Position numbers and translations under genes: made by a program
The notes under the pieces: generated by a model
Seen by the model: only the letters and a program-made list of their open reading frames with translations
Databases searched by the model: none
Told to the model about the DNA's origin: nothing
Shown: one piece after another, positions 13,515 through 35,960 of the stretch
How the letters are laid out: every line of letters begins with the position of its first letter
How positions within the stretch are numbered: the stretch's first letter is position 1
Source of the DNA: Blastocystis sp. Blastoise
Lineage: Eukaryota; Protista; Bigyra: Opalinata
Direction: 5' to 3'
Assembly (NCBI GenBank): GCA_039096225.1
Contig: JBBPEB010000009.1
Location: forward strand, 868,001-932,000
Length of the DNA stretch: 64,000 nucleotides

Positions 13515-14408
13515 TTCTTCCGTTCTTCGAACTGCAGAAGGGGGTATGCAAACCCCGCATAGAGTCTGCGCGACGCGCGCAGCCATAAGCGGGGAAGACA
13601 TCCCCCTTTTTGTTCTCGACGGAAGAATTAATAACATTTCTGAAGTAAAATAACCATGGGAGTGTAGGGTAGTGTGTGTGTGTATTTATTTTTTCCCATG
13701 TTTATTTATTTTTAATTTATTTGTGTTCCGATTCCAACGTGAAACGTAAAGTGATCAAGGAGAAACTCATAGTAATCATAAAAGAAATAAAATACACAGT
13801 CCAACCCTCCCCTTTACAGGGAATATTCATGGGAAATGGCTCCATCGTTGGTAAAGTGAGTAAAATAATCACGGGAATACAGAAAGAAATACGAAAAGAA
13901 GCACAGAATGTGCTAAATAAACACACACCCCGACCCTCCCTTTATATAGAGAAAAGATGAAATGGATGGTTCTATCTAAAAAGAAATAATAGAAATAATC
14001 ACGGGAATATATAAAAATAAAAATGTATGTATAGTGATCAATAAATAATATAAAAAGTCATGATAATCATAAAAAAATTTATATAAAAAGAGTAAAGTGA
14101 TCAAGGTATGTATTTATAGTGGGTGAAAGAAAAGCTGGTGGTGGTGTGGTCTTGTAAAAAGATGTACCCACCACCACGATTATAACGAGAGACTTTTGGA
14201 AACAAGGGTGACCGTTATGGAAATAGGATGCGTCATCGTGAATTGTCCAATCAAATTGCTTAAAAATGTAAAAATGAGGGATTTTGGAACACAAAAACAC
14301 AATTATAATAGGGAAACTGGGGAAACTAATTGTGTTCCAGTTGTTTTATGTGGCGGAATGTATATCAATTTTCTAGAACATTCTAGAACATTCTCGAAAC
14401 TTCTAGAA
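13515..14408 (+). repeat. Left terminal inverted repeat of the PLV
   Basis: Reverse complement of 40829-41723 with a few substitutions and indels. Confidence 0.95.
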
Positions 14409-14418
14409 CATTCTAGAA
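14371..14418. promoter_or_regulatory. Heat-shock-element-like array (10 alternating nTTCn/nGAAn units) upstream of recombinase 1
   Basis: TTCTAGAACATTCTAGAACATTCTCGAAACTTCTAGAACATTCTAGAA, ~90 bp before ATG 14507. Confidence 0.7.
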
Positions 14419-14506
14419 CATGAGAATCTTAGATATTTTATTTTGATTTTCTTATGTATTATTCTTTTGAAAATAGAAGTTTTAAATATTCTACTTGAGA
14501 AAATCA

Positions 14507-15442
14507 ATGAAAAATACGAATTATGACAAGTATCTTTCTGTTATACAAAATTCAAATTATTCTGATATTTGGAAAAAACGTTTAACCAATTATTTCAATT
14601 TATATATTTTCCCATTACCATTTAAAAAGTTCTCAGAATTCTTAAAGAATCCTTATTCATTCATGGATTATATGGTAAATGAGCGTAAAATCAAAATTAG
14701 TCCAATGAAATCGTTATGTGAATTGATTTTATTTATTATACGTAATGTTTCTTCATTAAATAAAGAAGGTATTTTAAATAAATGGTGTGAATTTTATGTG
14801 ATTATCAATTCAATGTATGAAAAATATCTGGATAATAAGAAACGTACTTTGATTCAAGATCTTATTAAAGATGGTATTACGACTCCTTATTTACATGAAT
14901 ATCACGATAAATTAGAAAATTATAATCCATTACGATTAATATTAGATTTTTACTCCTATCTTCCTCCTGCTCGTGCTGATTATGCTCAATTATTCATTCT
15001 ATCACCAGAAGATACTATTGATCCAGCTATTCATAAGAATTATATTGTTTATGATAAAGAGAAACATACTGGTTCTATTCTATTAAATGATTATAAAACT
15101 GCTGGTAAATACTCTACAATTCAATTAGATGCACCAAAAGAATTGATTGAAGATCTAGAATTACTCTTAAAAAGAAATCCAAATCGTAAATTTATATTTG
15201 AATCTTCTGTACGAACTGGATTTACTACTAAAGCATTTGATTGGTTTGTGAATAAGCATTTAAAACAAATCCATCCAAAATTAACCATTAATGCATTAAG
15301 AAAATTATATGCTACAACTACAACCAATACATTCCAAGATATAGAAAATTCTGCTTCTGCTTTATGTCATAATGATTATACACATATTAATTCTTATGTA
15401 TCTTTAGAAAATAATAATTTATTTAAAAAATTAATTGAATAA
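14507..15442 (+). CDS. Tyrosine recombinase 1 (PLV/virophage type)
   Basis: PPARADY (R), NDYKT (K), NALRKLYAT, ALCH, INSY (Y) catalytic pattern; first ATG at 14507. Confidence 0.8.
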   Translation: MKNTNYDKYLSVIQNSNYSDIWKKRLTNYFNLYIFPLPFKKFSEFLKNPYSFMDYMVNERKIKISPMKSLCELILFIIRNVSSLNKEGILNKWCEFYVIINSMYEKYLDNKKRTLIQDLIKDGITTPYLHEYHDKLENYNPLRLILDFYSYLPPARADYAQLFILSPEDTIDPAIHKNYIVYDKEKHTGSILLNDYKTAGKYSTIQLDAPKELIEDLELLLKRNPNRKFIFESSVRTGFTTKAFDWFVNKHLKQIHPKLTINALRKLYATTTTNTFQDIENSASALCHNDYTHINSYVSLENNNLFKKLIE

Positions 15443-15515
15443 TTTTATGTTTTCATGCTTGTTTTGTTTTAAATTTGAATATAACTAAACAACTAGTAAT
15501 AAAAGGATATAAAAA

Positions 15516-15890
15516 TTAATTAAAAGGTAAGAAAGATAGATTATTATTATTATTTTGATATTGATTTTGTTGTTGATTACTTTTCATAGTTGGCATAAAC
15601 ATATTATTGGGTTGAATAAGATTTTTATCATCTTGATATTGATTCTCATTCTTCATATATTGTTTATCCAATAGCATTTCAAGACGTTGATGAATCACAG
15701 GATCATCTATATAAAGTAGCATATTTCTACAATAACTTAGTTGTAAATCACTAAGATTTTTGTTGTTATTGTTATTTAAAAATTGTTCTAATAGATTCGC
15801 TATTTCATTCTTTTTGGATTTAATTCCTTCTTCTTTTAGATTCTTCATCACACGACAAAAATAAGAATAACTAAGATATTTCTTGTTCAT
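15516..15890 (-). CDS. Hypothetical viral protein, 124 aa
   Basis: ATG-initiated ORF with an upstream HSE array (15986-16008) and downstream TGTTTAGTT (15483-15491). Confidence 0.6.
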   Translation of the reverse strand: MNKKYLSYSYFCRVMKNLKEEGIKSKKNEIANLLEQFLNNNNNKNLSDLQLSYCRNMLLYIDDPVIHQRLEMLLDKQYMKNENQYQDDKNLIQPNNMFMPTMKSNQQQNQYQNNNNNLSFLPFN

Positions 15891-15985
15891 TATTTAAATT
15901 AACCAATGATTAAACAAAACAAATTAATTATATAAAACACTAATATAATAAATTAAAGATTCTACAAATAGAGCCAGTTCAAAAT

Positions 15986-16008
15986 GAATGTTCTAGAATG
16001 TTCTAGAA
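15986..16008. promoter_or_regulatory. HSE-like array (5 units)
   Basis: GAATGTTCTAGAATGTTCTAGAA, ~100 bp upstream of ORF 15890(-). Confidence 0.6.
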
Positions 16009-16012
16009 GGTT

Positions 16013-16633
16013 TTAACAAGGCATAAGATTTCCATTAGAAAGTAAATAAAGTAAAGAATAATAAAAGCAACCATTTGCATTACTTGTAGTTTTTTGGTGT
16101 TGAATAGGATTATACTGAATATTATGATTTTGAATAAATGATTTTGAAAAAGTAGGTTCATTTCCTAATGACGAATAGTGTTCTATATTTTTATTACCAT
16201 TATAAATAACAGCTTCAAAATGACCATTATAAGGATCACTAGGACTTTCATGAAAGATCATATTAAATTTAGTTTGATCTTGATCTATATTTTGTTCAAA
16301 ATCATCATAACTATTATAATAATTATAAGATTGAGAATTCGTTTTATTTAATTGTTTCATAACATTTTCAGCACGATCACAAGCAACAGAAGAGGTAGGT
16401 TTATTTAAATAAGCATAATTATATAATTGAGATATTAAAGAATTGGGTATATTACAATATTGAGATAGAGTTTGTTTGAAATTATCAGGGGATCTAGGAG
16501 TAACATGACGAGTTTTATCAGATATAATAGGATTATCGCAATTCATTGAATTTTGAATTAATTTCTCATCTTTACTCTTTACCAGATCCCCTCCCCTGAG
16601 TTTTTTGATAACATATACTTCTTTTCTTTCCAA
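16013..16633 (-). CDS. Adenain-like cysteine (maturation) protease, probably expressed by -1 frameshift from the upstream ORF
   Basis: NGHFEAV (His), IEHYSSLG, IQYNPIQHQ (Gln), SNANGCFYY (Cys) resemble adenain/PLV protease motifs. The ORF-track start is TTG; first ATG is 16546. Confidence 0.65.
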   Translation of the reverse strand: MERKEVYVIKKLRGGDLVKSKDEKLIQNSMNCDNPIISDKTRHVTPRSPDNFKQTLSQYCNIPNSLISQLYNYAYLNKPTSSVACDRAENVMKQLNKTNSQSYNYYNSYDDFEQNIDQDQTKFNMIFHESPSDPYNGHFEAVIYNGNKNIEHYSSLGNEPTFSKSFIQNHNIQYNPIQHQKTTSNANGCFYYSLLYLLSNGNLMPC

Positions 16634-18306
16634 AACATTTGTTCACCTCTATCTAATATTTCATTATTATCCATCTTCTGTTTTATAATTTGTAATTGTT
16701 TTAAATCATTTTTAGCTACTTTACGTTTCCTTTGAGCTACTTGTGCAGGTATTACAAAATCTGTATAAGCTGATACTATTGGAGGTAAATCACCACCTCT
16801 TTTCTTTTTAGCTTCTTTTCCTCTTCTCATTCGTTCTAAGAATTCTTCTTTACTTAATTTAACACGACCACCATATCCTCTACGTTTAGCTCTTCTTGCA
16901 GCTATTCGTTTATCCCTTTCATCTTCTTTCCATTTTCTATCGACTTTTTCTTTATCATTTTGAGGAAAACCATAAATCTTATAAGGATAACTTTGTTCAT
17001 CACGAGACATGGGTTTATAAGGTTGAGGAGGTTGTTGAGTTTGTGGATGTCTTGGTGTATCATTTTGAGGTATATCAAATGTATCAACATTCAATTCAGG
17101 TTCAATTTCTGGTTGTGGTTGAATGGGTGCTGCTGGAGGAGGTGGTTGACGAACAGGAAGATTCTTTCTAAGTTGTTGTTTCATACTGTGCAAATCTCTT
17201 AATGGTTGTACTTCTTGATCTAATAATTCTGATTGTCGTTCAACTGTATCGTAACCATCATTAATTGTTCCCATTACTATACCATTACCTATTTGCTTTT
17301 TCATTTCATTTAATGCTTGTTGACGTTTTAATTTTTCCATTTCAAATTCCATATCATTTAATTCACTTGATTGTTGTGCCAAATGTGTATCATAATAAGC
17401 TTTTCTACCTTTAGCAAAAGAATCCATACCTTTATCAACTACACCTAGAAGAGATGGTGCTATAGTTGTAAATGAGTCCCAGAACCCACCACCTCTTTTT
17501 ACTCTTAATATACCATCACCACTTTGAGCTGAATCTAAATCTATATATTTTGGTATAATAGAGGGTCTTAACATTCTTCTTAATTTTGGATTAATAATCA
17601 TTTTCTTATTTTTAATTGCATTCATAATTGCTGAAGCAACAGATATAGGAATTTTTCCACCACGTTTAATTTTATGTTCATAGAATCTTTTGAATTCATC
17701 ATCAAGATCATGATGACCGTCACCAACATATTGAGCTAAAATAGCTAATGCATCACGAGCTTTTCTATTAGCTTTTTTATCTACAATAGCATCTCTTATA
17801 TCTAATACATTTCGTTGATACATATCTTTTACTTTATTTTTAATTGCATCACCAATACCAGAACCTTGATTATTCTCAAATTTATTGATTTCTGATTTAT
17901 TTGGAATAATTCCTCTACCAGATTTACGTCTTGGTTTACATGGATTTAATACTTTATATTGACGATCTTCACCATCTATTTTATCTTCTTCTGGACCAGC
18001 TGCTTTCATTACACCTTTACCTGCTGCTCTAGCACGAATTAATGCACCATTTCCTTGTGGAACAGCATCTTTACCAAATGTTTTAGAACGATCTACATAA
18101 TCATCTTCTTTACCATCATGTATTTCTTTACTTTCTAAAGTAGACACAGGCATAGATGAATTTGGACCTATTTCATGAAATATTGGATTATATTGATCCA
18201 TTTTATGTAATGGTTGTGTATTATATCGCCTATATTCTTTTCCAGTTGAAATTAAATTCATACCAAAAGTACCAGGACTTGGCATTCCTAATATACAACT
18301 TTGCAT
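16579..18306 (-). CDS. Basic, low-complexity putative core/DNA-condensing polyprotein (575 aa)
   Basis: K/R-rich, with about a dozen GxG/GG motifs (GNGA, GRGI, GSGI, RGGK, GDGI, RGGG, GNGI, RGGD, GEGI); adjacent to the protease. Confidence 0.6.
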   Translation of the reverse strand: MQSCILGMPSPGTFGMNLISTGKEYRRYNTQPLHKMDQYNPIFHEIGPNSSMPVSTLESKEIHDGKEDDYVDRSKTFGKDAVPQGNGALIRARAAGKGVMKAAGPEEDKIDGEDRQYKVLNPCKPRRKSGRGIIPNKSEINKFENNQGSGIGDAIKNKVKDMYQRNVLDIRDAIVDKKANRKARDALAILAQYVGDGHHDLDDEFKRFYEHKIKRGGKIPISVASAIMNAIKNKKMIINPKLRRMLRPSIIPKYIDLDSAQSGDGILRVKRGGGFWDSFTTIAPSLLGVVDKGMDSFAKGRKAYYDTHLAQQSSELNDMEFEMEKLKRQQALNEMKKQIGNGIVMGTINDGYDTVERQSELLDQEVQPLRDLHSMKQQLRKNLPVRQPPPPAAPIQPQPEIEPELNVDTFDIPQNDTPRHPQTQQPPQPYKPMSRDEQSYPYKIYGFPQNDKEKVDRKWKEDERDKRIAARRAKRRGYGGRVKLSKEEFLERMRRGKEAKKKRGGDLPPIVSAYTDFVIPAQVAQRKRKVAKNDLKQLQIIKQKMDNNEILDRGEQMFWKEKKYMLSKNSGEGIW

Positions 18307-18799
18307 TTTTTTATTTCAATTATAAAATTATTTATAAACAAAACAAATATATTAATAAAAAATAAATTTAACATTAAAAATTTATAAATTAGTTAAATCA
18401 ATAATAGTATCATTACTATTAGTATTCTTCGTAGATTTATCGATGACTTTAATAGAACGAGCATATAAACCAATATAATACTTGTTATTATAACGATGAA
18501 TACCATGTATTGTAAATAATACTTTACATAACGTATTTGGTGGAATATACTTTTCACGTATTTCTTCGTAAGTTAACTTAGGATCTTTACCGATATTAAT
18601 CTTCTTATCTCTTTTATCAGTAACTAGGGTCACGCCGCAGGTCCGGGGCCTAACGGCACCGGACCGCGGCTGCATAAAATAATAACAGTTTGGCTTTTAT
18701 TTTCTTTTTTTCATTATTATATATTATCTATTATATATTAGTATTTATTATTTATTATTTATTATCTATTATATATTATATATTATATATTATTATCTA

Positions 18800-19290
18800 T
18801 TATATATTATATATTATATATTATATATTATATATTATATATTATATATTATATATTATATATTATATATTATATATTATATATTATATATTATATATTA
18901 TATATTATATATTATATATTATATATTATATATTATATATTATATATTATATATTATATATTATATATTATATATTATATATTATATATTATATATTATA
19001 TATTATATATTATATATTATATATTATATATTATATATTATATATTATATATTATATATTATATATTATATATTATATATTATATATTATATATTATATA
19101 TTATATATTATATATTATATATTATATATTATATATTATATATTATATATTATATATTATATATTATATATTATATATTATATATTATATATTATATATT
19201 ATATATTATATATTATATATTATATATTATATATTATATATTATATATTATATATTATATATTATATATTATATATTATATATTATATAT
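18800..19290. repeat. (ATTATAT)n 7-mer microsatellite within Helitron A
   Basis: ~490 bp of near-perfect 7-mer; the equivalent region at ~53310-53410 is short. Confidence 0.9.
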
Positions 19291-19305
19291 TACTTTAATA
19301 ACACT

Positions 19306-19372
19306 TCTTATACTCTATATGGGAGTTACAATCATTTATTGATTGTAATCAGGTTCAATTCCTGATATAAGT
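19306..19372 (+). ncRNA. tRNA-like (mascRNA-like) cloverleaf, subtype 1
   Basis: CTTATA / CTCT-ATATGG-GAG / TTACAATCA-TTTAT-TGATTGTAA / TCAGG-TTCAATT-CCTGA / TATAAG. Confidence 0.6.
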
Positions 19373-22228
19373 ATCTTTTAGATTTTTTTTTATAATATGT
19401 AAAAAACTAAAAGAATTTCTTAGATACTAAAAACGAAATTTGTATTATTATATATTATTTATTATTTTTAAAATATATTTTGTATTTATTAATAATGAAA
19501 CAACTGTTTTAAGCTTTTTTTGAGTTTTTAAAGTCAACAACTTTAGAAATGAGTCACAATGTGAAGTACTCTTGAGTATTTTTAAGTCATAAAATTCATT
19601 TAAATAAGCATAATATAATAATTTTAACTCATTTCAATACTTTTTAAAAGAATTTTGAAGTTTTATGTATAACAAAGTCAACATTCATTCTAACTTTGAC
19701 AACTAAAACATTTCTTAAAAAGTTAATATTTCTACAGTCGTCTCAAATAATGATCTTAAACACAAATTACTTGAAAACGTAACTTTTAAATAGACTTTAC
19801 CCATTCAAGATCCACTGTATCAAAATAATTTCCTTTAGTCTTTTGATATAATATAGAGTTTATCACACTATTTATTTAAAAAAAGTAAATGTTTTGAATC
19901 TCTTTCTTAAAGACCATTTTTGACACATTATGAAAAGTTAAGACACCTTAACTCATTTTTATAAGCTAATATTTACACACTATACTCAGTATAACGTTGG
20001 CTACACATTGGTCATCACTTTAAGACATTTTATAAACCTTTTGCATTTGCTCATTTACTTCGACCAAAATATTTTCGTCCCTCCTTTTGACATAATATAG
20101 AGTGTGTGGTCTAGTTATATGAAAGTGAGGGGGAATTTTGAATCTCGTCCTCTAAGTCAATCATTTTTACATTTTTCAAAATTTATACCCCTAAACTTGA
20201 TATTTTGACTCAACTTTTCTACAGTGTTCCAAAAACACGATTTTGCTCAAACTGAGTGAAAAATATTTTTTCAATAACTCTCACAACCCTTTACACATCC
20301 ACTCTCTAAAAATAGATTTTGCTATATTTTTGATATGTTGTAGAGTGTCTCTTAGTGTATACTGAACAATATCTCGTTTCTTAAAACTCTCATTTTATGA
20401 CTCACTTTGAACATATTATTACTAATTGAAAGGCTTAAACATATTTTTAAAAGCTAATATTTACATAGTAGACTATATATGACTCTATAAGCACATTAGT
20501 CAACACTTTAGACTTTTTAAAGACACTTTACCATTTGGTCATACACTTTGATCAAAATATTTTCGTCCCTTCTTTTAACATAATATAGGTCATACACTCT
20601 AGTTTAATGAATAAACACTCAAATATTGAATCTCGTCCTCTAAGTCACTCGTTTTTACATTTTTTTAAATTTAAGACCCTTAGAGTTAATTTTTTGGCTC
20701 AATTTTTTTATAGTGCACGAAATTCACGATTTAACATAAACTGAAGTAAAAATAAATTTTAAATAATAGTCACAACCCTTCACACATCCACTCTCTAAAA
20801 ATTATTTTAACTGTACTTTTGATATGTTGTAGAGCTACTACAGCTGTACACTAATTAATATCTCTAAATTTTTTATTCATAGTCTAAGACTATGTTTTAC
20901 ACATTCTTTTGAATTTGACAACCTTAAACTATTTATTTAAAGCTATTATTCATAAAATAAACTTAATATATGATTCTAAACACATATAGAAACCCTTTTA
21001 CTTTTTAAGACACATTTTGTCATTTGGTCATACACTTTGACCTTCATAATTTTGACTCTCCTTTTAATATAGTATAGAGTTATAAGTCTAGTTTACTAAA
21101 CGAAAGTCATTATATTGAATCTCTCACTCTAAGACCACTTAATTCACATTTTTCAAAATGGTCACTTTTAAACTTGTTATTTTAAAACTTTGTTTTAACT
21201 ATAGTAGTTTGATGACCTATTGATTACAATACTACAATATTAGTCCATTATAAGAAGATCGAAGAAAATATCGATCACTCAAAAATCGTCCTCAGGAGCT
21301 CAAAATTGGTACACCTAGGTTTTTGAACCTCCTGAATCAGAATATGATGTCAAATTGAGAATCTAAATTTGACTGTTAAGGCCTCACGTGTTCAATATGA
21401 AAAAGTCTTTAAAAATAGATAAATATAAAGAATAAACACGGATAACGTATATTGTGGGATTGATAAAAAATCAAGTTTACCCCATGTTTATTTTTCAATT
21501 GTCTGGTCAACAATTTTTATCGGGGTCATCCCAAAGAGCCAATCAAAAACGACTCAAAAATCATGTTTTCTGTTCTTTTATTAATAACTTTTTAATTATA
21601 AACAATATCGCTTAACCAAATATACGGTGCACAACTACATGTTATATCCTATTGAACTGTGTTTCAACCAAAAGTTAACTCCCCGTAAGTTTAGAGGAGT
21701 TGCGGCGACAAACTATAGTATATAGTAGCCAATCAAATGCATTTTCCAAAAACTGACCAATGGGAATTTTTTTGCCTATTCTCATATATATAGTAATGAT
21801 ATCAATAGTAACATTCTTCGATGCATTAATAGGTACTTTAATTGTAATCTTATACTTACCATTATCCATACGTACAAAATTAACAATATCACCATCAGGA
21901 CATAATTCACATAATTTACGATAAAGTTCTTTATAAGCAGTTAAGAATACTTGATTATCATCTTCAATTGTTAATAAAGTCCATTTATCACGTGTAACAA
22001 TATAACCAAATAAACATGGTGTAGCATCAGTAGAAATACATACACGATGATTATTATTTAAAAGAACAGCATTTTCTTTGGTGTCATCCCATTGTAAATT
22101 AAAGTTAGAAGTATCAAGAATAGTAGGTTTTTTAAATTCAGTTGTAGACATTTTTAGTTAAGTATTTAGTAAAAATATAAGTATTTTAATACTAATATTT
22201 TACGATATTCTTTTCAAATGAATCAATT

Positions 22229-22276
22229 TTCGAGAAGGTTCTAGAAGGTTCTAGAAGGTTCTAGAAGGTTCTAGAA
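22229..22276. promoter_or_regulatory. HSE-like array (10 units) upstream of the SSB gene
   Basis: TTCGAGAAGG(TTCTAGAAGG)3TTCTAGAA, ~80 bp upstream of ATG 22151(-). Confidence 0.7.
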
Positions 22277-22475
22277 AAAAAAGAACACTTGAATAATCTA
22301 ATGGAAACATTTTAACGGAATCGAACCATGATACTGTGGTTACATATTTCTTTAATAGATCCATTAGACCATTCAAGAATTCTATTTGAAACTATTCTAT
22401 TCTCCATTTAAACTTTGTGTAATTAATTTAAAAAAAAAAATAAACAAAACAAAATAATTAATTAAATAAAAATAA

Positions 22476-23003
22476 TTAATGATCAAATATTTCAGACATA
22501 GAAGGAATAGAATATTCGGATAATAATGAAACAATTTCTTTAGAATCATCATGAATCTGTTTCAAATCTTGTTTCTGACTTTCAATCTTTGTTTTTAAAT
22601 GATCAACAGTACAATAAATACCATTTAATATATTATCAGCTGTTTCAATAGTTTGAAATAAAGATTCGAATTGACTGGATATATTTGTTAACTCCTCATT
22701 TGTAAATAATAATGCTTGCTTATTAGGATTTGTATTTACTTGATCTTGAAATTGTATTGGTTGATTGTTAACGGAATGATATCTATCTGGATTTTTAGAT
22801 ACGTAAACATCATTGATTGGATGAATTTCTTGAGGTGGATCTTCAAACATGATTTCGTCACGCGAATTAAAACAGAAATCATTATCATTGGGTAAAGCCA
22901 TAGGATTTGCAGAAACACTATTTTCAAATGGATTCAACAAGGGGGATATCATGGCTTGACCGAAAGGGGATAAACTGGCGGAAAGATTATCAGGAATTTC
23001 CAT
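22476..23003 (-). CDS. Hypothetical viral protein with C-terminal coiled coil
   Basis: 175-aa ATG ORF; TGTTTTGTT downstream at 22443-22451(-). Confidence 0.6.
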   Translation of the reverse strand: MEIPDNLSASLSPFGQAMISPLLNPFENSVSANPMALPNDNDFCFNSRDEIMFEDPPQEIHPINDVYVSKNPDRYHSVNNQPIQFQDQVNTNPNKQALLFTNEELTNISSQFESLFQTIETADNILNGIYCTVDHLKTKIESQKQDLKQIHDDSKEIVSLLSEYSIPSMSEIFDH

Positions 23004-23272
23004 GATTATTTAAACCTTCAAAAGTATTTTTATACAATATATTAAATATACTATTTTTAGTGTACAGTTCTTCATTTCAGTTGCTAACAAAAGCCTATTG
23101 CTTCCAGCTGGAAAATAAGCCAATAAAATAACTTATTTCGTATGACACATCGTCGTCATCGTCTAATTGTGTTTTACTAATTTTTTTATCCAATCAGATT
23201 ACAGATGCCAACTATACTCGTCATTGAAACACAAATAAAAAATGCTAAGTCGACAAAATTAGCCAATCAAAT

Positions 23273-23290
23273 GAACCTTCTAGAACATTC
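23273..23290. promoter_or_regulatory. HSE-like element (4 units) beside CCAAT boxes in a divergent promoter
   Basis: GAACCTTCTAGAACATTC, with CCAATCA at ~23190 and ~23263. Confidence 0.55.
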
Positions 23291-23401
23291 CATAGAGATT
23301 CTACACTGTCTCCTAGAATATTTAATATTCCATTTAAATGTATTATTTATTTCATTTTGATAAATACAAATTTTCTCTCTGTAACGATATTCGCGATTAT
23401 A

Positions 23402-24025
23402 ATGCAATTTAATCTTTCTGCTGATTCCCGTAAATGTCTTCAAACTGTTCGTATGGAACTTCTAAAGAATTCTAAGAAGGCTGTTGAAGTTCATAAGAAT
23501 GTTCTTCGTGATATTGATTTACATCAGTCTCAATTGAATAGAGAAAAGAATCTATTGGGTATTGCAAAATCTAAAGAACGTCTTGCTTCTTTCGAAGTCG
23601 AAAATTATAGATCAGCTTTAAAACGTATAAACGCGGTTATTAAAGGTCTTGAAGATTATGAAGAATTCGCTGCTGATATTTATACTCAACAACTTAATGA
23701 AGAACAAGATATTCAAGATATTATCAATACTGAAGATCTTTTAGAAAGTGATAGAACTACTATTTTATGTTCTGAAGATTCTAAAGAACATTCGAATTCT
23801 AAAGATGATGATTTTGATATTATGAAATTCCATATGGAAGATGGATTTCTTTATGATGAAAAAGGTAAAGTTTATTCTTATGAAGTTGTTCATGCTAAGA
23901 GTATTAACAAGATTAAAAGAGATCCTTCAAAACAAATGTATTTCTGGGATGGTATTTTATATGATAAAAATGGATGGCCTCATTCATGTACATATATTAA
24001 TAGTCAAGAACCAATTGAAATTTAA
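23402..24025 (+). CDS. Hypothetical viral protein (N-terminal coiled coil; two DGxLYDxxG repeats)
   Basis: ATG 23402; DGFLYDEKG and DGILYDKNG. Confidence 0.65.
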   Translation: MQFNLSADSRKCLQTVRMELLKNSKKAVEVHKNVLRDIDLHQSQLNREKNLLGIAKSKERLASFEVENYRSALKRINAVIKGLEDYEEFAADIYTQQLNEEQDIQDIINTEDLLESDRTTILCSEDSKEHSNSKDDDFDIMKFHMEDGFLYDEKGKVYSYEVVHAKSINKIKRDPSKQMYFWDGILYDKNGWPHSCTYINSQEPIEI

Positions 24026-24135
24026 TTATTTTTCTTGTTTATTTTTCTATTTTTACTTATAAACTTGTAAAAAATCATTGAAAATTGTTTTGTTTATTGT
24101 ATATACATTTAAAACACTAAAGTATAAAAAGGATG

Positions 24136-24265
24136 TTCTAGAAGGTTCTAGAAGGTTCTAGAATGTTCTCGAAGGTTCTAGAACATTTAAAAATATAAAG
24201 TAATATTTACTATTATAGAATGTTCTAGAAGGTTCTAGAAGGTTCTAGAAGGTTCTAGAAGCTTC
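24136..24265. promoter_or_regulatory. Two HSE-like arrays (10 + 10 units) upstream of the primase-helicase
   Basis: 24136-24183 and 24218-24265: alternating TTC/GAA with variable 2-nt spacers. Confidence 0.7.
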
Positions 24266-24351
24266 CAAAACTGACTTCTAGAATCTTTAATATATTATTT
24301 GTTTTGAATTTTATACCATATTTATTTTCATTATTTATAAGTCAAATAATC

Positions 24352-27189
24352 ATGGAAAATTCACAAATTCATTTTGTTTATACTTTTGGTTCCTTTAATC
24401 ATGATAACTCAAAAGATAATCATAGTGAAATTATTATACCAAATCCATTACCATTTTATAAAAGTCTATTTACTAATTATCAAAATCAAAAAGAATTATT
24501 ACATTATATTGATTGTACTCCTTGTAATACATCAACTAATTATAGAAGATTATGGTTTGATTTAGATTATCACCAAATATCTGATGATTTTTCTTTTCTA
24601 ACAGATTCTTTTATTCATGAATTTATTGAAGAAATATGTAATCATTGTATTCATTATTATAATCAAGAATTTATTTCGCTTGTGTATACAAAGAAAGAAG
24701 TGAATAAGAAGACAGTTCATAATGAAATACATTATTCATGGGGAATTCATATATATACGAATTGGTTTGTAAATGGTGATTATTTATTTTTCTTATATAA
24801 TAGTATGATTTTGAATACCAAATTGGTTGATTTATGTAAAACATATAATTTAGATATAAAAGAATTCATTGATTATAATGTTATTGGTAAACCCAGAAAG
24901 AATAATGGTTGTATGTTTCTTGGTTGTAGCAAAGATAATTCTCCATCTACTTATAAATTATATGAAGAATATACCAATAAAACATGGAAGAAAATAGATG
25001 ATGAAATCGATGAACATTATTATTTCAAAACATTATTGAATTATAAGAATGAAGATGATATTATAAGTGATATTATTAATCCTATTATCTTTTCTAAATT
25101 AAAACAATATTCACGTTATAAACGTTATTATGCAAGATTAAATAATTGTTCACGTACTATATTATGTTCTATACAAGATATTAAAGATATTCCTATGTTG
25201 ATTTCTACAGATACTATATTGGATACTACAGCATCTAAAGAAGCTTTATTAGAACGATATTTATTATTGATTGGTTCTATTGAAGATATGAATTATTTTG
25301 AATCCCATAATACTTGGTATAAATTATGTTGTGCAGCAAAACAGATTTGTAATACAACAAGAGGATTAGAATTATTTAAAAATTATTCATTACGTTATGG
25401 CCATGATCGAAGTGATGATGTAATTGAATCTACATGGAATCATATACAAGTTGATCCTACTCATTTATCGAATAATTATATTTTGAAGATATTAATGGAT
25501 AATAAATTATTTAATAAAGATGATGATAATGATTTCATATTTATGTCTATTTTAGAATGTATTCAATCCTTTAATCTTGTAGATTCACAAACATTAGTTA
25601 TGTTATTTCAATTATTAGAATTTAATGAAATTGTATCTATTATATTAGATAAAGATAATTTTATCTTATATACATTTGATGAATATAATATCTTAAGACG
25701 TTGTAAGAATAATTATGATATTAATTTCTTTGAAACCAAAATAACTACATTTATGAAATCGATTGTAGAGAAATTCAAACTATCAAGATTATATTCCAAA
25801 GAGAATGAACAACATCAAAAAATAGTTGATAAAATAATGTCTGCTTCTGTTACTAATGAATATCATTATAAAGAATGGTTGAATCGTTATTTGAAGACTT
25901 ATGGTAAATCTTATAAAGAATATTTAGATACGTATATGGTTCATAAAGAACGTGTTATCTATACACAACTTGGTTATTTATATCCAAAAGAATCTACAGA
26001 AGAAGATCCTAGACAATATTATATCCAACCATATCATAAAGAAGATATGGTGTTTGAAGATTTATTAATTGATACTGAATTTAATGTAAGTTGGAATATT
26101 AATAATGAACAGAAAGATATTATCCAATTATTTGAACAACATATTGCAAGATATTGTGAATTCGATAAGAAATATGAAAGTATTATGTTACGTATCTTAA
26201 CCACTGCTTTCTATGTCAATACTCAGAAAACTGTTTCTTATATATTATATGGTAGTACAGGTAGTAATGGTAAAACAATAACAACTGATTTAATATCTCG
26301 TATTGTAGGTAGTAATCAATGTATTATAGTAAATCCAGATAATTTAGAAGAAACATCTATAGCTCCTAAGATTGTAGATATGTCTAATAAAACAATGTAT
26401 TATATGAATGAATTAATAGAAGAAGATGTTACTGGTAGAAAGAAAACATTTAATCCATTCTCTTCTAAAGTCTTTAAAGAAATAGCAGAAAAGAAAGAAG
26501 GTGCTAGTGCTCGTAAATTATTCAGTAATATATTTACAAAAGTTCATTTCACGGGTACTTTATTTATGACAAGTAATATCCAACCTACTGCTGTGAATGC
26601 TGGTCCTATTGAAAGAAGAGTCTGTTTCTTACCATCATGTTGTCGTTATTTCCCTCCTGGTAATGCTAATTTATATGAAGATTATGTAGATCATAATTTA
26701 CCTAAACGTAAACAGACAGTAGAAAAGAGATTGAAACCAAATCATTATGAAATGGATTATACTCTATCCGATAAATTCTATCAGAATCGTTCAATTATCT
26801 TTAGTTATCTAGTAAGTAATTATTTCTATTCTAGTATGCAATTAGATATGCATGAATTAGATAATGAATATCATATAAGTGAATGTAAGAAACGATTCTT
26901 TGATCGTAGTACAGAAGGATATGATTTGAAATCTTTTGTTGATAACCATATTACTATAGATCCTTATTATTTGAATGTAGTTACTATTGAAGATATTTTT
27001 AATAGTTATAAGAAAGTGAATAATAATAATCAATTTACGATTAAGAAAGATTTAGATAAATTTACAAATGCTTTATTTGGTTGTTTAAGTAGTAAAGATA
27101 CATTTAATTCTATAGATATTGTGAATATTCATAGAAAACATACTTCAAATTTCTATAAGGGGGGAATGCTATTGGTATTTGTGGTTTAA
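24352..27189 (+). CDS. AEP primase(-polymerase) - PriCT-2 - D5-like SF3 helicase fusion
   Basis: LWFDLD and GIHIY (AEP motifs); HNTWYKLCCA..GLELFKNYS..TW (PriCT-2-like); LYGSTGSNGKT (Walker A), YYMNE (Walker B), LFMTSN, IERRV. The true C-terminus may extend to 27353. Confidence 0.85.
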   Translation: MENSQIHFVYTFGSFNHDNSKDNHSEIIIPNPLPFYKSLFTNYQNQKELLHYIDCTPCNTSTNYRRLWFDLDYHQISDDFSFLTDSFIHEFIEEICNHCIHYYNQEFISLVYTKKEVNKKTVHNEIHYSWGIHIYTNWFVNGDYLFFLYNSMILNTKLVDLCKTYNLDIKEFIDYNVIGKPRKNNGCMFLGCSKDNSPSTYKLYEEYTNKTWKKIDDEIDEHYYFKTLLNYKNEDDIISDIINPIIFSKLKQYSRYKRYYARLNNCSRTILCSIQDIKDIPMLISTDTILDTTASKEALLERYLLLIGSIEDMNYFESHNTWYKLCCAAKQICNTTRGLELFKNYSLRYGHDRSDDVIESTWNHIQVDPTHLSNNYILKILMDNKLFNKDDDNDFIFMSILECIQSFNLVDSQTLVMLFQLLEFNEIVSIILDKDNFILYTFDEYNILRRCKNNYDINFFETKITTFMKSIVEKFKLSRLYSKENEQHQKIVDKIMSASVTNEYHYKEWLNRYLKTYGKSYKEYLDTYMVHKERVIYTQLGYLYPKESTEEDPRQYYIQPYHKEDMVFEDLLIDTEFNVSWNINNEQKDIIQLFEQHIARYCEFDKKYESIMLRILTTAFYVNTQKTVSYILYGSTGSNGKTITTDLISRIVGSNQCIIVNPDNLEETSIAPKIVDMSNKTMYYMNELIEEDVTGRKKTFNPFSSKVFKEIAEKKEGASARKLFSNIFTKVHFTGTLFMTSNIQPTAVNAGPIERRVCFLPSCCRYFPPGNANLYEDYVDHNLPKRKQTVEKRLKPNHYEMDYTLSDKFYQNRSIIFSYLVSNYFYSSMQLDMHELDNEYHISECKKRFFDRSTEGYDLKSFVDNHITIDPYYLNVVTIEDIFNSYKKVNNNNQFTIKKDLDKFTNALFGCLSSKDTFNSIDIVNIHRKHTSNFYKGGMLLVFVV

Positions 27190-27397
27190 TGATTGATAAT
27201 ACTTATAATGAATGTGTGGATACAGATTTATTCTGTTTATCCAATTGTTTATCTAAGAAAGAAGAAATTGTTTATAGTGAAGATCAATATCATAATACGT
27301 CATCAACAAAACGAATTTTAATAGATAATACTTTATATGCTATACCAAATTAAATATATATTTATTTTTTATTATAAAAAGTTGTTTTGTTTTAAAA

Positions 27398-29194
27398 TTA
27401 ATAAAATTTAAATTGAATTCCATGAAAATGTTTTTTAGGGACTTTGACTTTAAAGAATGCATTACTTTTATGTTTTTTCAATAAACCATGACCACGATGA
27501 ATAGGTTCTAAAGGAGGCATAGTAGAAAGACTACGTAATGCATAAGTATCTGAATTATTCATAACTATAGGTGTAGAGTTTTCATCTTGGGTATTCTGTT
27601 GCATAAGAGATGCTTGAGTATTCGTTAATTCTGAATCTGTTGTATTATTATGTAAATGATCAGGTAATAATTGTTTATTACGTATAAAACGATTATAACG
27701 ATCTCTAGAATTCTCTGGAACTTCTTCAGATTCTAATGAACATCCTACAGGTAATTCATTTTCTAAATCGTTTTTATCAGGATACTTATGCTTTAATAGA
27801 TCTTTATAATATCTTAATGTAATCATTATAGTATCATTATCTGATGAATATTGTTCTAATGTAGATAATATCGATTCTGATTTCATATTGAAATTCTCTT
27901 TACCAAATACATCTTCATAGTCTTCATCATATTGTTCTATACGATCATTAAATCGTTTACATAAAAATAATAATTTATTCAATTGATTAATTTCTCTTGT
28001 ATAAGTAATATTATTCATATCAATATGAAATATTCTTGTTTTATTATCTAAATCTTGTAATTTAGTTGAATGAGAAGATAAATAAGGAGATATATAATTT
28101 TCCATATGTGTTGATTGACTATGTAACATCTTCATAATAGAATTTTCAAAGAGTTCTACACCTTTAGATTCATGTTCTGAATCATTATGTTGGAATTGTG
28201 CTTCTCTTGATAATCTATAATAATATTGAGCAAATAAATGTCTTATAATATCACAACCATTAATTAAAGAATTATTCTGTTGTGTTTTATAAATCCAGCC
28301 TAAATGGGGTTTTATATATTCATCACCAAATTTCAAATCACGTACTTTACCACCATTCTCAGTAACAAATAAATAATGTCTTGGAAATAAACGTAAGGAT
28401 CTAGCTAAGACATTTAAATATTCTTCTGATAAATACTGATAAGTAGGATATTCATTCTTACCAATTTCAAATCGATTCTTTGTATCATTCACATGAATAG
28501 TCAAAGTATTTAAATCAATATAATTGGTTGTTCTTCTTAAGGATAAAGGAATTTGTTGGCCACGAGTATAGATTACACAATCATTATAATCATTACGAGC
28601 ACATAATGTATCATAAGTTAAAACTAATAAATAACTATTCACATAATATAAATCATTAGGATTCTCTAAATAATTCTTTTTGGTGATATTAATGATTTCT
28701 CCCCAATCAGCTTCACAATTAATAATTTTCTGAGTGATTTCATAATGTCTTGAATAAGTAGCATCAATTTGTAAAGAACCCCATAAATGTTCCCATTTCT
28801 TTATATTTTGTGGAGTAAATGCTTTATAATTAATGATATCTTCATCATCTGTACAAATAGATATATTCTTCATTATATAAGTAATCATTTGCATATAATT
28901 AGCTACAGTAGTATTGGATAATCCACCTTGTTGTCCAGGAGCTTCTGTTTGTGTATGTTGCATAACATTTTGAAATTGAAATGGATCTGTTAACACTTCT
29001 ACACAAAAGAATGGTTCTTCCATATCATCTATTTGAATTCGTTCTTCATTACGAAATTTCTTACATATTGTCTTTATCCATTTCTTCCAATTTATACTTG
29101 TTGATAATTGTATTTTCTTCCAATGTAATAATTGATCTATACAATTTGTAAAGAATTCTTCACAATCTTTATCTGAATAACCTGTTGATTGCAT
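27398..29194 (-). CDS. Tyrosine recombinase 2 (598 aa, long C-terminal extension)
   Basis: LCARNDY, NYID, DTKN, SLRLFPRHYLF, DIIRH, MLHS..HMENY. Confidence 0.7.
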   Translation of the reverse strand: MQSTGYSDKDCEEFFTNCIDQLLHWKKIQLSTSINWKKWIKTICKKFRNEERIQIDDMEEPFFCVEVLTDPFQFQNVMQHTQTEAPGQQGGLSNTTVANYMQMITYIMKNISICTDDEDIINYKAFTPQNIKKWEHLWGSLQIDATYSRHYEITQKIINCEADWGEIINITKKNYLENPNDLYYVNSYLLVLTYDTLCARNDYNDCVIYTRGQQIPLSLRRTTNYIDLNTLTIHVNDTKNRFEIGKNEYPTYQYLSEEYLNVLARSLRLFPRHYLFVTENGGKVRDLKFGDEYIKPHLGWIYKTQQNNSLINGCDIIRHLFAQYYYRLSREAQFQHNDSEHESKGVELFENSIMKMLHSQSTHMENYISPYLSSHSTKLQDLDNKTRIFHIDMNNITYTREINQLNKLLFLCKRFNDRIEQYDEDYEDVFGKENFNMKSESILSTLEQYSSDNDTIMITLRYYKDLLKHKYPDKNDLENELPVGCSLESEEVPENSRDRYNRFIRNKQLLPDHLHNNTTDSELTNTQASLMQQNTQDENSTPIVMNNSDTYALRSLSTMPPLEPIHRGHGLLKKHKSNAFFKVKVPKKHFHGIQFKFY

Positions 29195-29261
29195 TATTAA
29201 AAATTAAATTATTTATAAACAAAACAAATTTATTATTAATATTTTATAACATTTCATAGAA

Positions 29262-29684
29262 TTATAAATGAAGAGATTGAACAATAGAATCAACACTTAT
29301 ATTTAATTTCATTAATTGAACAGCTAATTCTTGTATTGATTCATTTTGATTCGAATCAATTTCTTCTAATTCATTCAAGACTTCAGATATATGTTTGACT
29401 TCTTCTTCTATAATCGTTTGTTGTATTTTCATTGTCTTATAATAGACTTTCTTTGTTTGTGGATTACAACAATTACAATGAATATCTATATTTTTAACAA
29501 TTAATTGAAAGAATTCAGTTGATTTCTCAAATAAACATTTTATAGCTTTTATAATAAATTCTAATAAAGTATTTTTCTTTTCTATTTCTTCTTCGGATAA
29601 TGTGGTTGTTGTTGAACTATCTGAACTTGTTGAACTTGTACTTGATAAAGAATGTAAGGATTCAGATACAGATTTAGGCTCCAT
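29262..29684 (-). CDS. Hypothetical viral protein (S/T-rich N-terminus, CNCC, coiled coil)
   Basis: 140-aa ATG ORF with the downstream 3' motif. Confidence 0.6.
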   Translation of the reverse strand: MEPKSVSESLHSLSSTSSTSSDSSTTTTLSEEEIEKKNTLLEFIIKAIKCLFEKSTEFFQLIVKNIDIHCNCCNPQTKKVYYKTMKIQQTIIEEEVKHISEVLNELEEIDSNQNESIQELAVQLMKLNISVDSIVQSLHL

Positions 29685-29753
29685 TTTTTAATAATTTTTA
29701 AATGAATAATATAACAAAACATTTTTTAATTTAAATGAAATGAATTAAAATAT

Positions 29754-32189
29754 TTATATATAAGAGATAGTTAATAAAACAACACAAGGATAATCACATG
29801 TTATAAAGAACATATTATCATGAGGTAATAACTTTAATAATTTACGATTACAATAATAGACATTCTTATTGATCTTATTTGATATACCTTCATATTTAAT
29901 ACCATTCGAATAGTAATAAGGTAGATTTGTAGTATCAATAACATGAATATTATTCTCATATTCATTAGTAAAGCATCTTAATGAAATAGGATATAAGTAA
30001 TCAGTGGATTGACCATACACTGATATAATTTGTATATTCGTTAAGTATTGATATCCATAGACATTGGTTTTCTTCAATTCATAAATTAAATTCTTACTCG
30101 TACTAAAATCACAATATACTTCATCATAAGCTTTGAAACGTATATCACTACCATTCGGTTCACATATATTACAAATTATATTTCCTTTGAATAATTCATC
30201 AAATCTTAAATCTATATGATGATCAATTGTGATTGGAGAATTTATATTACTATAAGTAACATATTTATCAGATAAAGGAAAACTAAATGTAGGATAATAT
30301 GATCCATTTATATATCCAGTACATAATTTAGATGCATTTGTTTGGATCGTATCAGTATCATTCTGAATAATAATATCTTTTAAGATCTTATTCTGGATAT
30401 TCAATGTAGGATATTCAGCATAGAATTGTGTGTCTGCTGTTAAACAATTCAAACATAATTTCTTAATGGTTTCACTAGGTTGAATCGTATCGACTGTATC
30501 TGAGAATTCTAAGAATCCTCTTAAAATACAATTATCATTGAAATTCACATATTGTTTATTCTTATCAGTATATCGTATTGTAATATCTTGTATTGTATTC
30601 AAATAAGGAGACACATTAATATTCATAATATCATGAAATTCATTATTGCCTTTATAATTATTCACATTGAATGAATATAAAGAATTCTGACTATTATCTA
30701 CTATATTCGATTGAGCTATTAACATTCCTTTTGGACGACTACTATCAATATTATGAATACCATAATTAATAATTTCATCATGACCTAATTTATTATATCC
30801 TAGAATTTCACCTAATTCTTGAGCTTGAGAAAAATCTATATGATAACTATCAGTATAACACTTATAATTACCATCTAAATCTAATGTATTCAAATCAGCT
30901 ATTTTGTCTGGTATTAATTGTTTACCATAAGATACATACCAAGCAAAACATCCTTGTTCATCATAAACTAAATCAGGACGTATATTATGTAGAGCACCAC
31001 GATACTTAAATAAGGAGTGCTCTATATCTGTAGCTGTAAATGTGAATGACGTAGAATCAGTACCTTTACAAGATAAATATATTATATATCCATCCTTATT
31101 GTCCATAGTCTGAGTATCTTTGGATATACTTAAATAATCCGTATAAATTGTATTATTGATTGAACTTTCTAATAATTCATAGAATTTGTTTTCTGTGTAA
31201 TTTCCAGGAGGAACAGTGAATGTAGTTTCATGAACACCATCATAACCACTCAATTGTCGAACAATCATTGTATTATATCCATCTTCCACAAAGACTGTTC
31301 TTTTAATTCTATTTAATGTAATTTCCTCTTGAAGTGAAGTATATGTCAATGTTTCTGAATCTTCAAATAAGCCAGTGAATAATTGTTTTTCTAAACTGAG
31401 TATATTATTACTTGACCATTGGAAATAAAATTTATGTTCATCAGCTAATACACATTTCATAATTCCATTAGAACCTTGTGTTGGAACAATATAACTTGAA
31501 TGATCACTCACACCATCAGTAAAGAATTCATTCAATTCATAGATTCCTGTTGATGTAACAGGAACATTATAAGAAGTTAATTGAGGTCGATATATGGTTA
31601 TAGTATCATCATCATATCTCATCATTAAACGATTAAATTTATCACCCCATTTAGCTGATACACAACATACAGCTATCCACCAAAACTCTATATCCGTATA
31701 AGTACCTTTTGGAAAGTAAAAACCACGTCTTTTCTTATAAATTGTAATTTCACAATACCAATCATCTCTATCAATGGTTATTGTTGGGGCTTCATTAATT
31801 TTGACAGTGGGATCAATATCAGGAGAATCTTTTATTACTGGTCTATCACATACATCAAAATGACATAGTTCTAATAATTGTGGAATAGAATAATTTTTCT
31901 GATCTAAAGTAATTGTTTGAATTTGTTCATTACCATTGACACGAGTATTTATATATTTGAATATTTGTGTTTTTGTGAAAGTATCAAATAGAGGCACACT
32001 TTCACTACCAATTAAATTAAGATCAATATAAGAAATGATATTTTTAGTGATATCAATAGAATTCGATAAATGTATATTGAATTGATTATCAATACAACGA
32101 ACATCAATAGGGACTACATGTGTTTTAATACGAGTATCCTTCTCTTCTAATGAAGTCTGTTCTTCATAATTATCATCATCAAGTTCCAT
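29754..32189 (-). CDS. Large penton/minor-capsid-like structural protein (811 aa)
   Basis: Repeated penton insertion motif (LDQKNYS, FPKGTYT, VPPGNYT) and IQDITIRYTDKNKQYVNFN, similar to the 35221 penton. Confidence 0.6.
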   Translation of the reverse strand: MELDDDNYEEQTSLEEKDTRIKTHVVPIDVRCIDNQFNIHLSNSIDITKNIISYIDLNLIGSESVPLFDTFTKTQIFKYINTRVNGNEQIQTITLDQKNYSIPQLLELCHFDVCDRPVIKDSPDIDPTVKINEAPTITIDRDDWYCEITIYKKRRGFYFPKGTYTDIEFWWIAVCCVSAKWGDKFNRLMMRYDDDTITIYRPQLTSYNVPVTSTGIYELNEFFTDGVSDHSSYIVPTQGSNGIMKCVLADEHKFYFQWSSNNILSLEKQLFTGLFEDSETLTYTSLQEEITLNRIKRTVFVEDGYNTMIVRQLSGYDGVHETTFTVPPGNYTENKFYELLESSINNTIYTDYLSISKDTQTMDNKDGYIIYLSCKGTDSTSFTFTATDIEHSLFKYRGALHNIRPDLVYDEQGCFAWYVSYGKQLIPDKIADLNTLDLDGNYKCYTDSYHIDFSQAQELGEILGYNKLGHDEIINYGIHNIDSSRPKGMLIAQSNIVDNSQNSLYSFNVNNYKGNNEFHDIMNINVSPYLNTIQDITIRYTDKNKQYVNFNDNCILRGFLEFSDTVDTIQPSETIKKLCLNCLTADTQFYAEYPTLNIQNKILKDIIIQNDTDTIQTNASKLCTGYINGSYYPTFSFPLSDKYVTYSNINSPITIDHHIDLRFDELFKGNIICNICEPNGSDIRFKAYDEVYCDFSTSKNLIYELKKTNVYGYQYLTNIQIISVYGQSTDYLYPISLRCFTNEYENNIHVIDTTNLPYYYSNGIKYEGISNKINKNVYYCNRKLLKLLPHDNMFFITCDYPCVVLLTISYI

Positions 32190-32263
32190 ATTTTTCTAAT
32201 TTATTAAATAATAATTTATATTAATTTTATTTTATTTATTAATATTTTTTTATTTAAAAAAAA

Positions 32264-33736
32264 ATGAGAATCTTAAGAATTAAAGATAATATTCCTATTC
32301 AAAGCAATACTGATATTCTATCAAGTCCTTATATCTTTCAATATCATTGGACTAATGTGGATAACACTTATATCAATTTCAATCAATCCTATTTGGATCT
32401 TACTGTCAAGGCAACTGTCACAGATAAAGCTGGACCAGTTTCTGTTTATTTAGATGAAACAGGTACTTCTGTTAGTTTCACCTATGATCAATTATGTCAA
32501 TATTTCTTGGATCAATTAGTTCAAAAAGCTAATATTTATTCTATTATTGATTCCACTGATGTTGAAATGGTTTATACTTTACCTGATGGATCTGATCGTG
32601 CTTTGAAATATGAAGAAAACTGTACACATGCTTCACGTGGTCGTAAAATGATTTTATTAAAAGATATCAGTAAGAATGATTTAGAAAAATCTATGTATGG
32701 TGAAGATTTATCTGCAGATACTTATGAATTGAATTCTATTCGTTATATACGTGCACATCCAAATGAATCTATTCATATTGCTATTCCTTTATATCTCATT
32801 AGTGGTTTAGGTGTTGATGGAGATTCTTTAATATTAACTAAACATTTCAATATGCTATTTAGAACGAGTACTATTGAATCCTTAATTGATAATAATATGA
32901 GTATTTATTTCAAGAATGGTGGTGCTAAATTATCAACACAATGGTTACATCTAACTGATGAAAAATGGTTTAAGACATTTGAATTGGAATCAGCTACTAT
33001 GAATTTAATGACTTATAAAGATATTCAATTCCAAACGAATGAATTATATAAAACTATACCTACATGTATTCAAGTCGATTATCAAAATACAAGAATAACT
33101 AGTGATCATTTCAATATCAATAGAGCTTTACCATTTATACCTGAATATATATTATTTTGGTTTACAAATGGTTATAGTTCAACAACTATTAGTAATGTAG
33201 CTAGTCCATCTGTATGGCCTAAATATCAAAGTTGTTTGATTGGTGATGTTCAAATGTTCCCTCAAACTGAATTCCCTACTCAAATGTATTATCATAATCT
33301 TACTACTAAAGGTCATGTCTTCAATAATGAAGAAACTGCTAGTTTATCTTGTCCTAATAAAAATTTATATTGTTTATGGGCTGATAATTCAAATCCTGAA
33401 ACTATTCTTAAATATGATGAATGGATTAAACATCCTATTTATATTATTCCAACTAAAGCATTAATGAATATCCAATCAGATAGTGGTATAGAAATGAATT
33501 TTGATTGTAATCTAGATGTCCATGATATTGAATATGGTCATGCTGATTCATCTACTGTTCCTGATGGATATACATGTACATATAATGAAACTACTAAAAT
33601 ATGGACACCTGATACTGGTGCTTCTTATAGTGTAGCATCTCATGCTGGTATTTATAAACATATTAATACTGAACTAAATGAGAAGCATCCTTATACATTA
33701 CATATGATTGCTGTACGTAGTGTACGTGATATTTAA
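32264..33736 (+). CDS. Major capsid protein-like, paralogue A (putative double jelly-roll)
   Basis: Aligns by eye along its length with 33907-35130; beta-rich; clustered with penton and ATPase. Confidence 0.65.
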   Translation: MRILRIKDNIPIQSNTDILSSPYIFQYHWTNVDNTYINFNQSYLDLTVKATVTDKAGPVSVYLDETGTSVSFTYDQLCQYFLDQLVQKANIYSIIDSTDVEMVYTLPDGSDRALKYEENCTHASRGRKMILLKDISKNDLEKSMYGEDLSADTYELNSIRYIRAHPNESIHIAIPLYLISGLGVDGDSLILTKHFNMLFRTSTIESLIDNNMSIYFKNGGAKLSTQWLHLTDEKWFKTFELESATMNLMTYKDIQFQTNELYKTIPTCIQVDYQNTRITSDHFNINRALPFIPEYILFWFTNGYSSTTISNVASPSVWPKYQSCLIGDVQMFPQTEFPTQMYYHNLTTKGHVFNNEETASLSCPNKNLYCLWADNSNPETILKYDEWIKHPIYIIPTKALMNIQSDSGIEMNFDCNLDVHDIEYGHADSSTVPDGYTCTYNETTKIWTPDTGASYSVASHAGIYKHINTELNEKHPYTLHMIAVRSVRDI

Positions 33737-35892: not shown

Positions 35893-35960
35893 TAAAATCA
35901 TTTATTTATCTTTAACTTATCATTAATTATTTTTTGTTTTGTTGATTAAAATCATATAAA

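Follow-up and report, generated by a model that had tools for sequence, protein, structure and literature searches.

Programmed −1 ribosomal frameshifting is a characteristic trait of RNA viruses, retroelements, and phages, and the slippery heptamer A_AAA_AAC is used at the gag-pro junctions of retroviruses such as MMTV and HTLV. According to the available text of PMC5009743, this heptamer is among the most shifty on mammalian ribosomes, and the frameshift examples in the available part of PMC13712778 are drawn from RNA viruses only. For polinton-like viruses, virophages, and the Preplasmiviricota, the literature outside subscription papers and supplements yields a single report of −1 frameshifting, in which, in the text available, Penton and Hexon-Adenain (“Hexain”) frameshifts of adintoviruses are predicted with KnotInFrame and treated as hypothetical (PMC11071296). 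The adenovirus protease and the mavirus protease MVP, which have the clan CE fold and cut at motifs of the GG-X/GX-G type, are encoded by separate genes in the available descriptions (PMC7998265, PMC6048507); the adenovirus enzyme recognizes (M/I/L)XGG-X and has a low copy number in the virion, with 7–50 copies of AVP as against 500–800 of pVII (PMC7998265). In Blastocystis, the main text of the genome paper contains no occurrence of either “polinton” or “frameshift,” and the available text on the Blastocystis hominis MELD virus makes no mention of frameshifting (PMC8502044).

The locus described here lies in a stretch of 64,000 nucleotides from Blastocystis sp. Blastoise (the window; Table 1), in an integrated viral element in which a presumed core protein is followed, in the −1 frame, by a predicted protease, and it quite probably represents programmed −1 frameshifting of ribosomes, which joins the two. 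This is likely a known mechanism in a new setting, since a core-protease frameshift of this kind appears not yet to have been shown in polinton-like viruses. By analogy, the site appears to work like the retroviral gag-pro junction, outside that family: in both, a structural polyprotein occupies the 0 frame and a protease the −1 frame, the heptamer is followed by a short spacer and a structure, and the protease is predicted to excise itself. However, the present case involves a linear dsDNA virus of a protist, a clan CE cysteine protease rather than an aspartic protease, and a predicted long stem-loop rather than the pseudoknot of MMTV, and the element appears to lack a reverse transcriptase and a retroviral integrase. 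The adintovirus Hexon-Adenain prediction is similar in that a −1 shift would fuse a virion protein to an adenain-like protease in a polinton-like virus, but in the text available it is a brief prediction for the capsid genes of animal viruses (PMC11071296), whereas the shift here would involve a presumed core protein, with comparative support from fused relatives and from sister copies. The window protease resembles the adenovirus protease and MVP in its predicted fold and in the GG-X and GX-G motifs of its presumed substrate but differs in being a polyprotein tail, either fused or frameshifted, and no match to these proteases was found at the sequence level. Like the MELD virus, the element is a midsize linear dsDNA virus with very divergent virion proteins, but the MELD virus, as far as the available text describes it, has PolB and an rve integrase (PMC8502044), whereas primase-helicase and recombinase-like genes are present here.

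The element has terminal inverted repeats and a size within the 15–40 kb range of polinton-like viruses, and it is assigned to this group because it encodes a double-jelly-roll capsid protein, a P-loop ATPase (weak match to FtsK, E 0.05; terminase PHROG, E 1e-10), and a primase-helicase. No Pfam or PHROG match to PolB or an rve integrase was obtained among the ORFs of the element that were scanned, a search that divergent genes could escape. The 6-bp TATTAA duplication is present although no rve integrase was found, and the element contains two recombinase-like ORFs, at 14507–15442 (weak Pfam match) and 27398–29194 (recognized by eye only). The adjacent ORFs at 32264–33736 (+) and 33907–35130 (+) look paralogous by eye, so that there may be two genes of the major-capsid type. 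Between two short ORFs, this copy of the virus is interrupted by a 14-nt tandem array (18651–19306) and a host repeat (about 19300–21800), the latter 91–92% identical to copies at 44250–45672, 47149–48570, and 54185–55607.

Table 1. Positions in the window of the polinton-like virus and of the features at its core-protease junction
Feature	Position	Strand	Remarks
Integrated polinton-like virus, about 28.2 kb	13515..41723	.	
Left terminal inverted repeat, about 895 nt	13515..14408	+	
Right terminal inverted repeat, about 895 nt	40829..41723	−	
Hexamer TATTAA, identical at both flanks of the element	13509-13514 and 41724-41729		Likely target-site duplication
TGTTTTGTT 3' signal after the protease	15913..15921	−	The first after the core ATG
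Open −1 frame, 209 codons (195 after the heptamer)	16013..16642	−	Clan CE cysteine protease fold (predicted)
Catalytic-type residue Cys160	16069-16067	−	
Catalytic-type residue His109	16222-16220	−	
Predicted stimulatory stem-loop, 106 nt	16592-16487	−	Stack of three helices (11, 6, and 6 bp) with an apical junction
First ATG in the protease frame, opening a 177-aa ORF	16546-16544	−	Inside the conserved segment and the apical hairpin
0-frame stop TAA	16581-16579	−	In a 4-nt stem bulge (TAAA)
575-aa basic protein, presumed core polyprotein, 0 frame	16579..18306	−	K+R 18%, GG/GxG repeats
Spacer, 7 nt	16599-16593	−	
LRGG in the −1 frame	16600-16589	−	Matches the adenovirus protease motif (M/I/L)XGG-X
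Slippery heptamer A_AAA_AAC, 0 frame	16606-16600	−	
GT...CAG stretch, 23 nt (intron of a rival explanation)	16618-16596	−	GTATAT and CTCAG ends
TGTTTTGTT 3' signal of the gene upstream of core	18337..18345	−	Bounds the presumed shared mRNA
Primase-helicase-like replication protein	24352..27189	+	phrog_1156, E 2e-9
Double-jelly-roll major capsid protein	33907..35130	+	TM 0.75 to DJR-like cluster
Single-jelly-roll penton candidate	35221-35892		Size and position only
P-loop ATPase, presumed packaging ATPase	35961..36998	+	

At the end of the 575-aa ORF, the 0 frame of the minus strand reads TCA AAA AAC TCA GGG GAG GGG ATC TGG TAA. A first-pass annotation had noted an in-frame A_AAA_AAC six codons before this stop, a 7-nt spacer, a long hairpin with the UAA bulged out, and a −1 frame that reads KKLRGGDL and runs open into the protease domain. 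All of these were recovered: the −1 frame stays open between 16642 and 16016, with KKLRGGDL at the heptamer, and the three helices that had been named are all present in the predicted fold (16592–16582/16497–16487, 16577–16572/16503–16498, and 16570–16565/16512–16507; pair probabilities 0.89–1.0), which has an energy of −33.8 kcal/mol and a z-score of −3.49. Its stability was equalled by none of 200 shuffles and by none of 2000 sequences in which the −1-frame peptide was randomly recoded with synonymous codons (mean −17.4). The arrangement is that of a canonical −1 frameshift site, with an X_XXY_YYZ heptamer in the 0 frame, a spacer within 5–9 nt followed by a stable (predicted) structure, and a −1 frame that stays open into conserved coding sequence ahead of its own start. 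In 19 ORFs of the element (6,906 codons) there are 25 in-frame X_XXY_YYZ heptamers, and A_AAA_AAC is found at 16606–16600 only; among the 25, no other site has so long an open −1 frame (195 codons; next, 13) or so stable a fold downstream (next, −23.7). When the element is taken as a whole, the stem-loop ranks about tenth among the distinct peaks in 2,628 windows of 120 nt, several others having a lower z. Further strong predicted hairpins, one of them inside the core ORF, are at 17141–17260, 31861–31980, 22261–22400, and 18561–18700 (z from −3.8 to −5.7). The slip site and stem are also rich in codons that are rare in their families, including AAC (25 of 559 Asn codons), CTG (2 of 514 Leu), GGG (6 of 251 Gly), and AGG (5 of 233 Arg), with CTG, GGG, AGG, and CTC each at about 2% or less, but the argument from rare codons is confounded because the first six codons are dual-coding. 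The only Rfam match, which was miRNA-like, below threshold, and on both strands of the hairpin (E 0.15 and 1.3), was discarded. Searches for the DNA of relatives in viral contigs, metagenome contigs, prokaryote genomes, phages, and plasmids gave no match, and the comparison with relatives is one of proteins, which covers the 0-frame end rather than the heptamer or covariation in the stem.

The 575-aa protein contains ten GG/GxG-type motifs, a type of motif that is cut by the adenovirus and mavirus proteases in the available descriptions (PMC7998265, PMC6048507), and is presumed from its sequence to be a core polyprotein; this designation, already made in the first-pass annotation, is a presumption from basic composition and motifs and not from a family match, since neither the core nor the protease ORF matched Pfam or PHROG. 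The core protein of the window and 20 others, all distinct and falling in four clusters, end without exception in LSKNSGEGIW followed by the stop, and none of the last 14 residues is variable as compared with 23 of the preceding 56. It should be noted that this variation is not independent, there being nine haplotypes in the last 70 residues, and that all 21 proteins share the label Blastocystis sp. Blastoise and may trace back to a single assembly and a single recent expansion. The common peptide end and stop in 21 of 21 nevertheless indicate that the break is not an indel of one copy. Sister genes with named records include KAK8799552.1, KAK8797515.1, and KAK8800604.1. The 494-aa ORF at 39053–40537 (+) is a distant paralogue of the N-terminal part of the 575-aa ORF (33% identity over 64 aa) and has GG motifs; no protease lies downstream of it.

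More distant relatives have a different layout. In P0087 (617 aa), the representative, and the only member examined, of a cluster of 30, residues 1–409 match the core ORF and residues 431–617 match the protease frame at 53%, so that the 575-aa ORF is homologous to the N-terminal two thirds of a fused protein; P0084 and P0079 have core and protease in a single ORF with the same layout, and the two are joined also in the gene models P0080, P0085, and P0086 (533 aa). An Atlas search with P0087 returned a match at the level of a lead only. The first-pass annotation had held that sister copies with the ORFs fused in frame would speak against frameshifting; among close sisters the ORFs are unfused and the stop is kept in 21 of 21, whereas distant lineages are fused, a pattern that favours a fusion product and speaks against an indispensable shift. 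Because the fused relatives are viable, the shift is not essential family-wide, and since these lineages apparently tolerate 1:1 expression, control of the core:protease ratio, as proposed in the first-pass annotation, would be lineage-specific at best. Proteases that are split from the core are also found elsewhere: two metagenomic clusters with 61–62% identity comprise 21 members that are called as free-standing proteins, mostly of 177 or 190 aa and none longer than 205, with contigs of up to 24 kb. The gene models P0078, P0082, P0088, and P0080 represent at least two further related virus families with the organism label Blastocystis sp. Blastoise; they merge core, protease, and the next small ORF and are likely annotation artefacts. 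P0078 differs from P0082 and P0088 in how core and protease are joined at this junction, which suggests, from the models themselves, that in a second family a frame break has been bridged by predicted introns.

The conservation of the −1 frame extends upstream of the first ATG that it contains. In the 12 residues before ATG 16546, 5–7 positions are matched in each of the seven relatives compared, and a GG/GKG motif is situated 15–16 residues before the CDN anchor in the −1 frame of the window and in P0078, P0079, P0084, and P0087. The start of the conserved protease is thus the GG site, which precedes the ATG by 15 codons and also precedes the 0-frame stop; only a change of frame could give access to it. 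The frameshift proposed in the first-pass annotation gains from these observations, the −1 frame being conserved ahead of the ATG in a setting of split sisters and fused relatives.

The product of the −1 frame is predicted to have the fold of a clan CE maturation protease, although the scores are moderate. An earlier structure model was weaker (pLDDT 56; best Foldseek E 0.004), and the model used here, of the 177 residues that contain the His and Cys, has a pLDDT of 74; its best 28 structure matches are to clan CE or related folds (Z 4.9–8.3, rmsd 3.1–4.8) and include ASFV pS273R (Z 7.1, rmsd 3.7, 126 aligned) and adenain (4wx4; Z 6.3, rmsd 3.4, 115 aligned). A MELD virus protease matches the window protease with an E of 1.6e-4. 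Of the putative catalytic triad, His109 and Cys160 are kept, but the acidic residue is not evident; the position that holds Asp ahead of “SLG” in the distant relative P0081 is Ser here. Three sequencing runs contain related sequence, none of them recorded as RNA; in the contigs of the best-matching run (share 0.16), coverage is limited to parts of the protease as far as 16523, with nothing from 16524–17000, and they are therefore silent on the junction.

The motif TGTTTTGTT occurs 22 times in the window as compared with 2.0 expected (11-fold over chance), and 16 of its sites lie between 15460 and 40595, where it is used after most of the virus genes. It behaves as a 3' signal because it is enriched, is found behind the last gene, and does not occur ahead of divergent starts. 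Of the element's 13 junctions between genes on the same strand, 12 contain it, the exception being that between core and protease. The first-pass annotation had stated that no 3' signal lies between these ORFs and that they likely share one mRNA: the gap is real and the only one of the 13, and this supports the presumed shared mRNA. The motif resembles what we take to be the Blastocystis downstream element. The role of this element is treated in PMC10690189, in which, in the text available, it is described from human-associated and not from tortoise-associated Blastocystis; what is found in the virus may point to another host or to a viral variant.

Several other explanations of the junction have to be considered. 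The protease might be made alone from ATG 16546, from a transcript of its own or through reinitiation past the TAA, the heptamer and hairpin being incidental or otherwise used. This ATG has an A-rich context like those of other genes of the element, its Met is kept in six of the seven relatives compared, the 177-aa protease that begins there includes both catalytic-type residues and folds at a pLDDT of 74, and 177-aa calls are the most common in the metagenomic clusters. However, the Met is kept in the fused relatives as well, where a role as a start is impossible, and is replaced by Leu in P0078; the conserved segment begins 12–15 residues before it, the ATG is inside the predicted hairpin, and the 32 nt between stop and ATG include no TGTTTTGTT signal. 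Independent synthesis of the protease is accordingly judged unlikely. It is quite improbable that the frames are joined by partial splicing of a short intron, the unspliced mRNA giving the core protein. There are 72 GT/GC-AG pairs that could join the two frames, and removal of the best candidate, 16618–16596, would give an in-frame join in which the GG-DL site is retained; also, the two ways in which the models of the second family (P0078 as opposed to P0082/P0088) join core and protease resemble predicted introns. Against this, all of the other long ORFs of the element are uninterrupted, 21 of 21 core records are unspliced, and 23 nt is shorter than the 30-nt norm for Blastocystis introns, which are longer in tortoise isolates according to the available text of PMC10690189; splicing would also leave unexplained a stem located exactly 7 nt behind a heptamer with the rare codon AAC. 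Excision of an 89-nt intron, with its GT at 16582 and its end at 16494, does not belong to the joins that leave an open frame.

The break is located at a run of six A's, fused relatives exist, and the 21 copies may derive from one assembly, so that the true sequence could be considered to have seven A's and a single ORF, the break being a systematic homopolymer error of assembly. This is very unlikely: the frames remain open at 17 other A/T runs of 6–8 nt in ORFs of the element, the 21 core proteins are concordant, the split is shared by two metagenomic clusters of other origin, and an error of assembly leaves the stem unexplained. A loss of one base could alternatively have inactivated a founder copy and been spread by transposition, the protease being dead or supplied by a helper of the P0080 type. 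Candidates for such a helper, with fused ORFs, are present under the label Blastocystis sp. Blastoise, and a host repeat has been inserted in this copy of the virus. The protease frame is intact, however, with 53–64% identity to relatives, the split state recurs in lineages that are 38% diverged, and the stem and rare codons require selection; the probability of this explanation is very small. Transcriptional slippage was set aside, a run of six A's being short for it.

If the junction is a site of programmed −1 frameshifting, most ribosomes would terminate at the TAA, yielding the 575-aa presumed core polyprotein, and a smaller share, held up by the predicted stem-loop, would slip by −1 on A_AAA_AAC and synthesize a fusion protein of about 764 aa with the protease at its end. 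The core part of the fusion would bring the protease with it into the particle, in which self-cleavage at LRGG-D, five codons after the slip, may free a 191-aa protease; LRGG is its predicted release site on the basis of the motif. The likely purpose would be a low and fixed dose of protease in the particle, as with retroviral Gag-Pro, and the AVP:pVII ratio of adenovirus is, by analogy, of the kind that a −1 shift would give. Such a site would constitute a well-supported case of −1 frameshifting in a eukaryotic double-jelly-roll DNA virus and explain how a low-copy protease enters the particle, and it would be a warning that recoding may lie behind proteases that are “missing,” or misannotated with false introns, in elements of this type; the purpose of the shift can be tested with the help of the fused relatives. 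The chances are slightly better than even that a lineage of protist DNA viruses independently reached the gag-pro design, a self-cleaving core-protease polyprotein, with a protease dose set by a shift and with both fused and frameshifted relatives still alive, in which case the birth of a recoding signal could be traced.

No description of this virus family was found in the literature outside subscription papers and supplements. Relatives in the P0001, P0002, and P0087 clusters are present on many metagenomic contigs (up to 24 kb), which suggests an undescribed and widespread group of viruses. Within the window, arrays of 4–10 alternating nGAAn/nTTCn pentamers are confined to the element, at 14371–14418, 15986–16008, 22229–22276, 23273–23290, 24136–24183, 24218–24265, and 40829–40866, and are mostly upstream of recombinase-like, primase-helicase, and small non-structural genes. 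This is what we take to be the pattern of heat-shock elements, and a possible role of the arrays is in reactivation of the virus triggered by stress.
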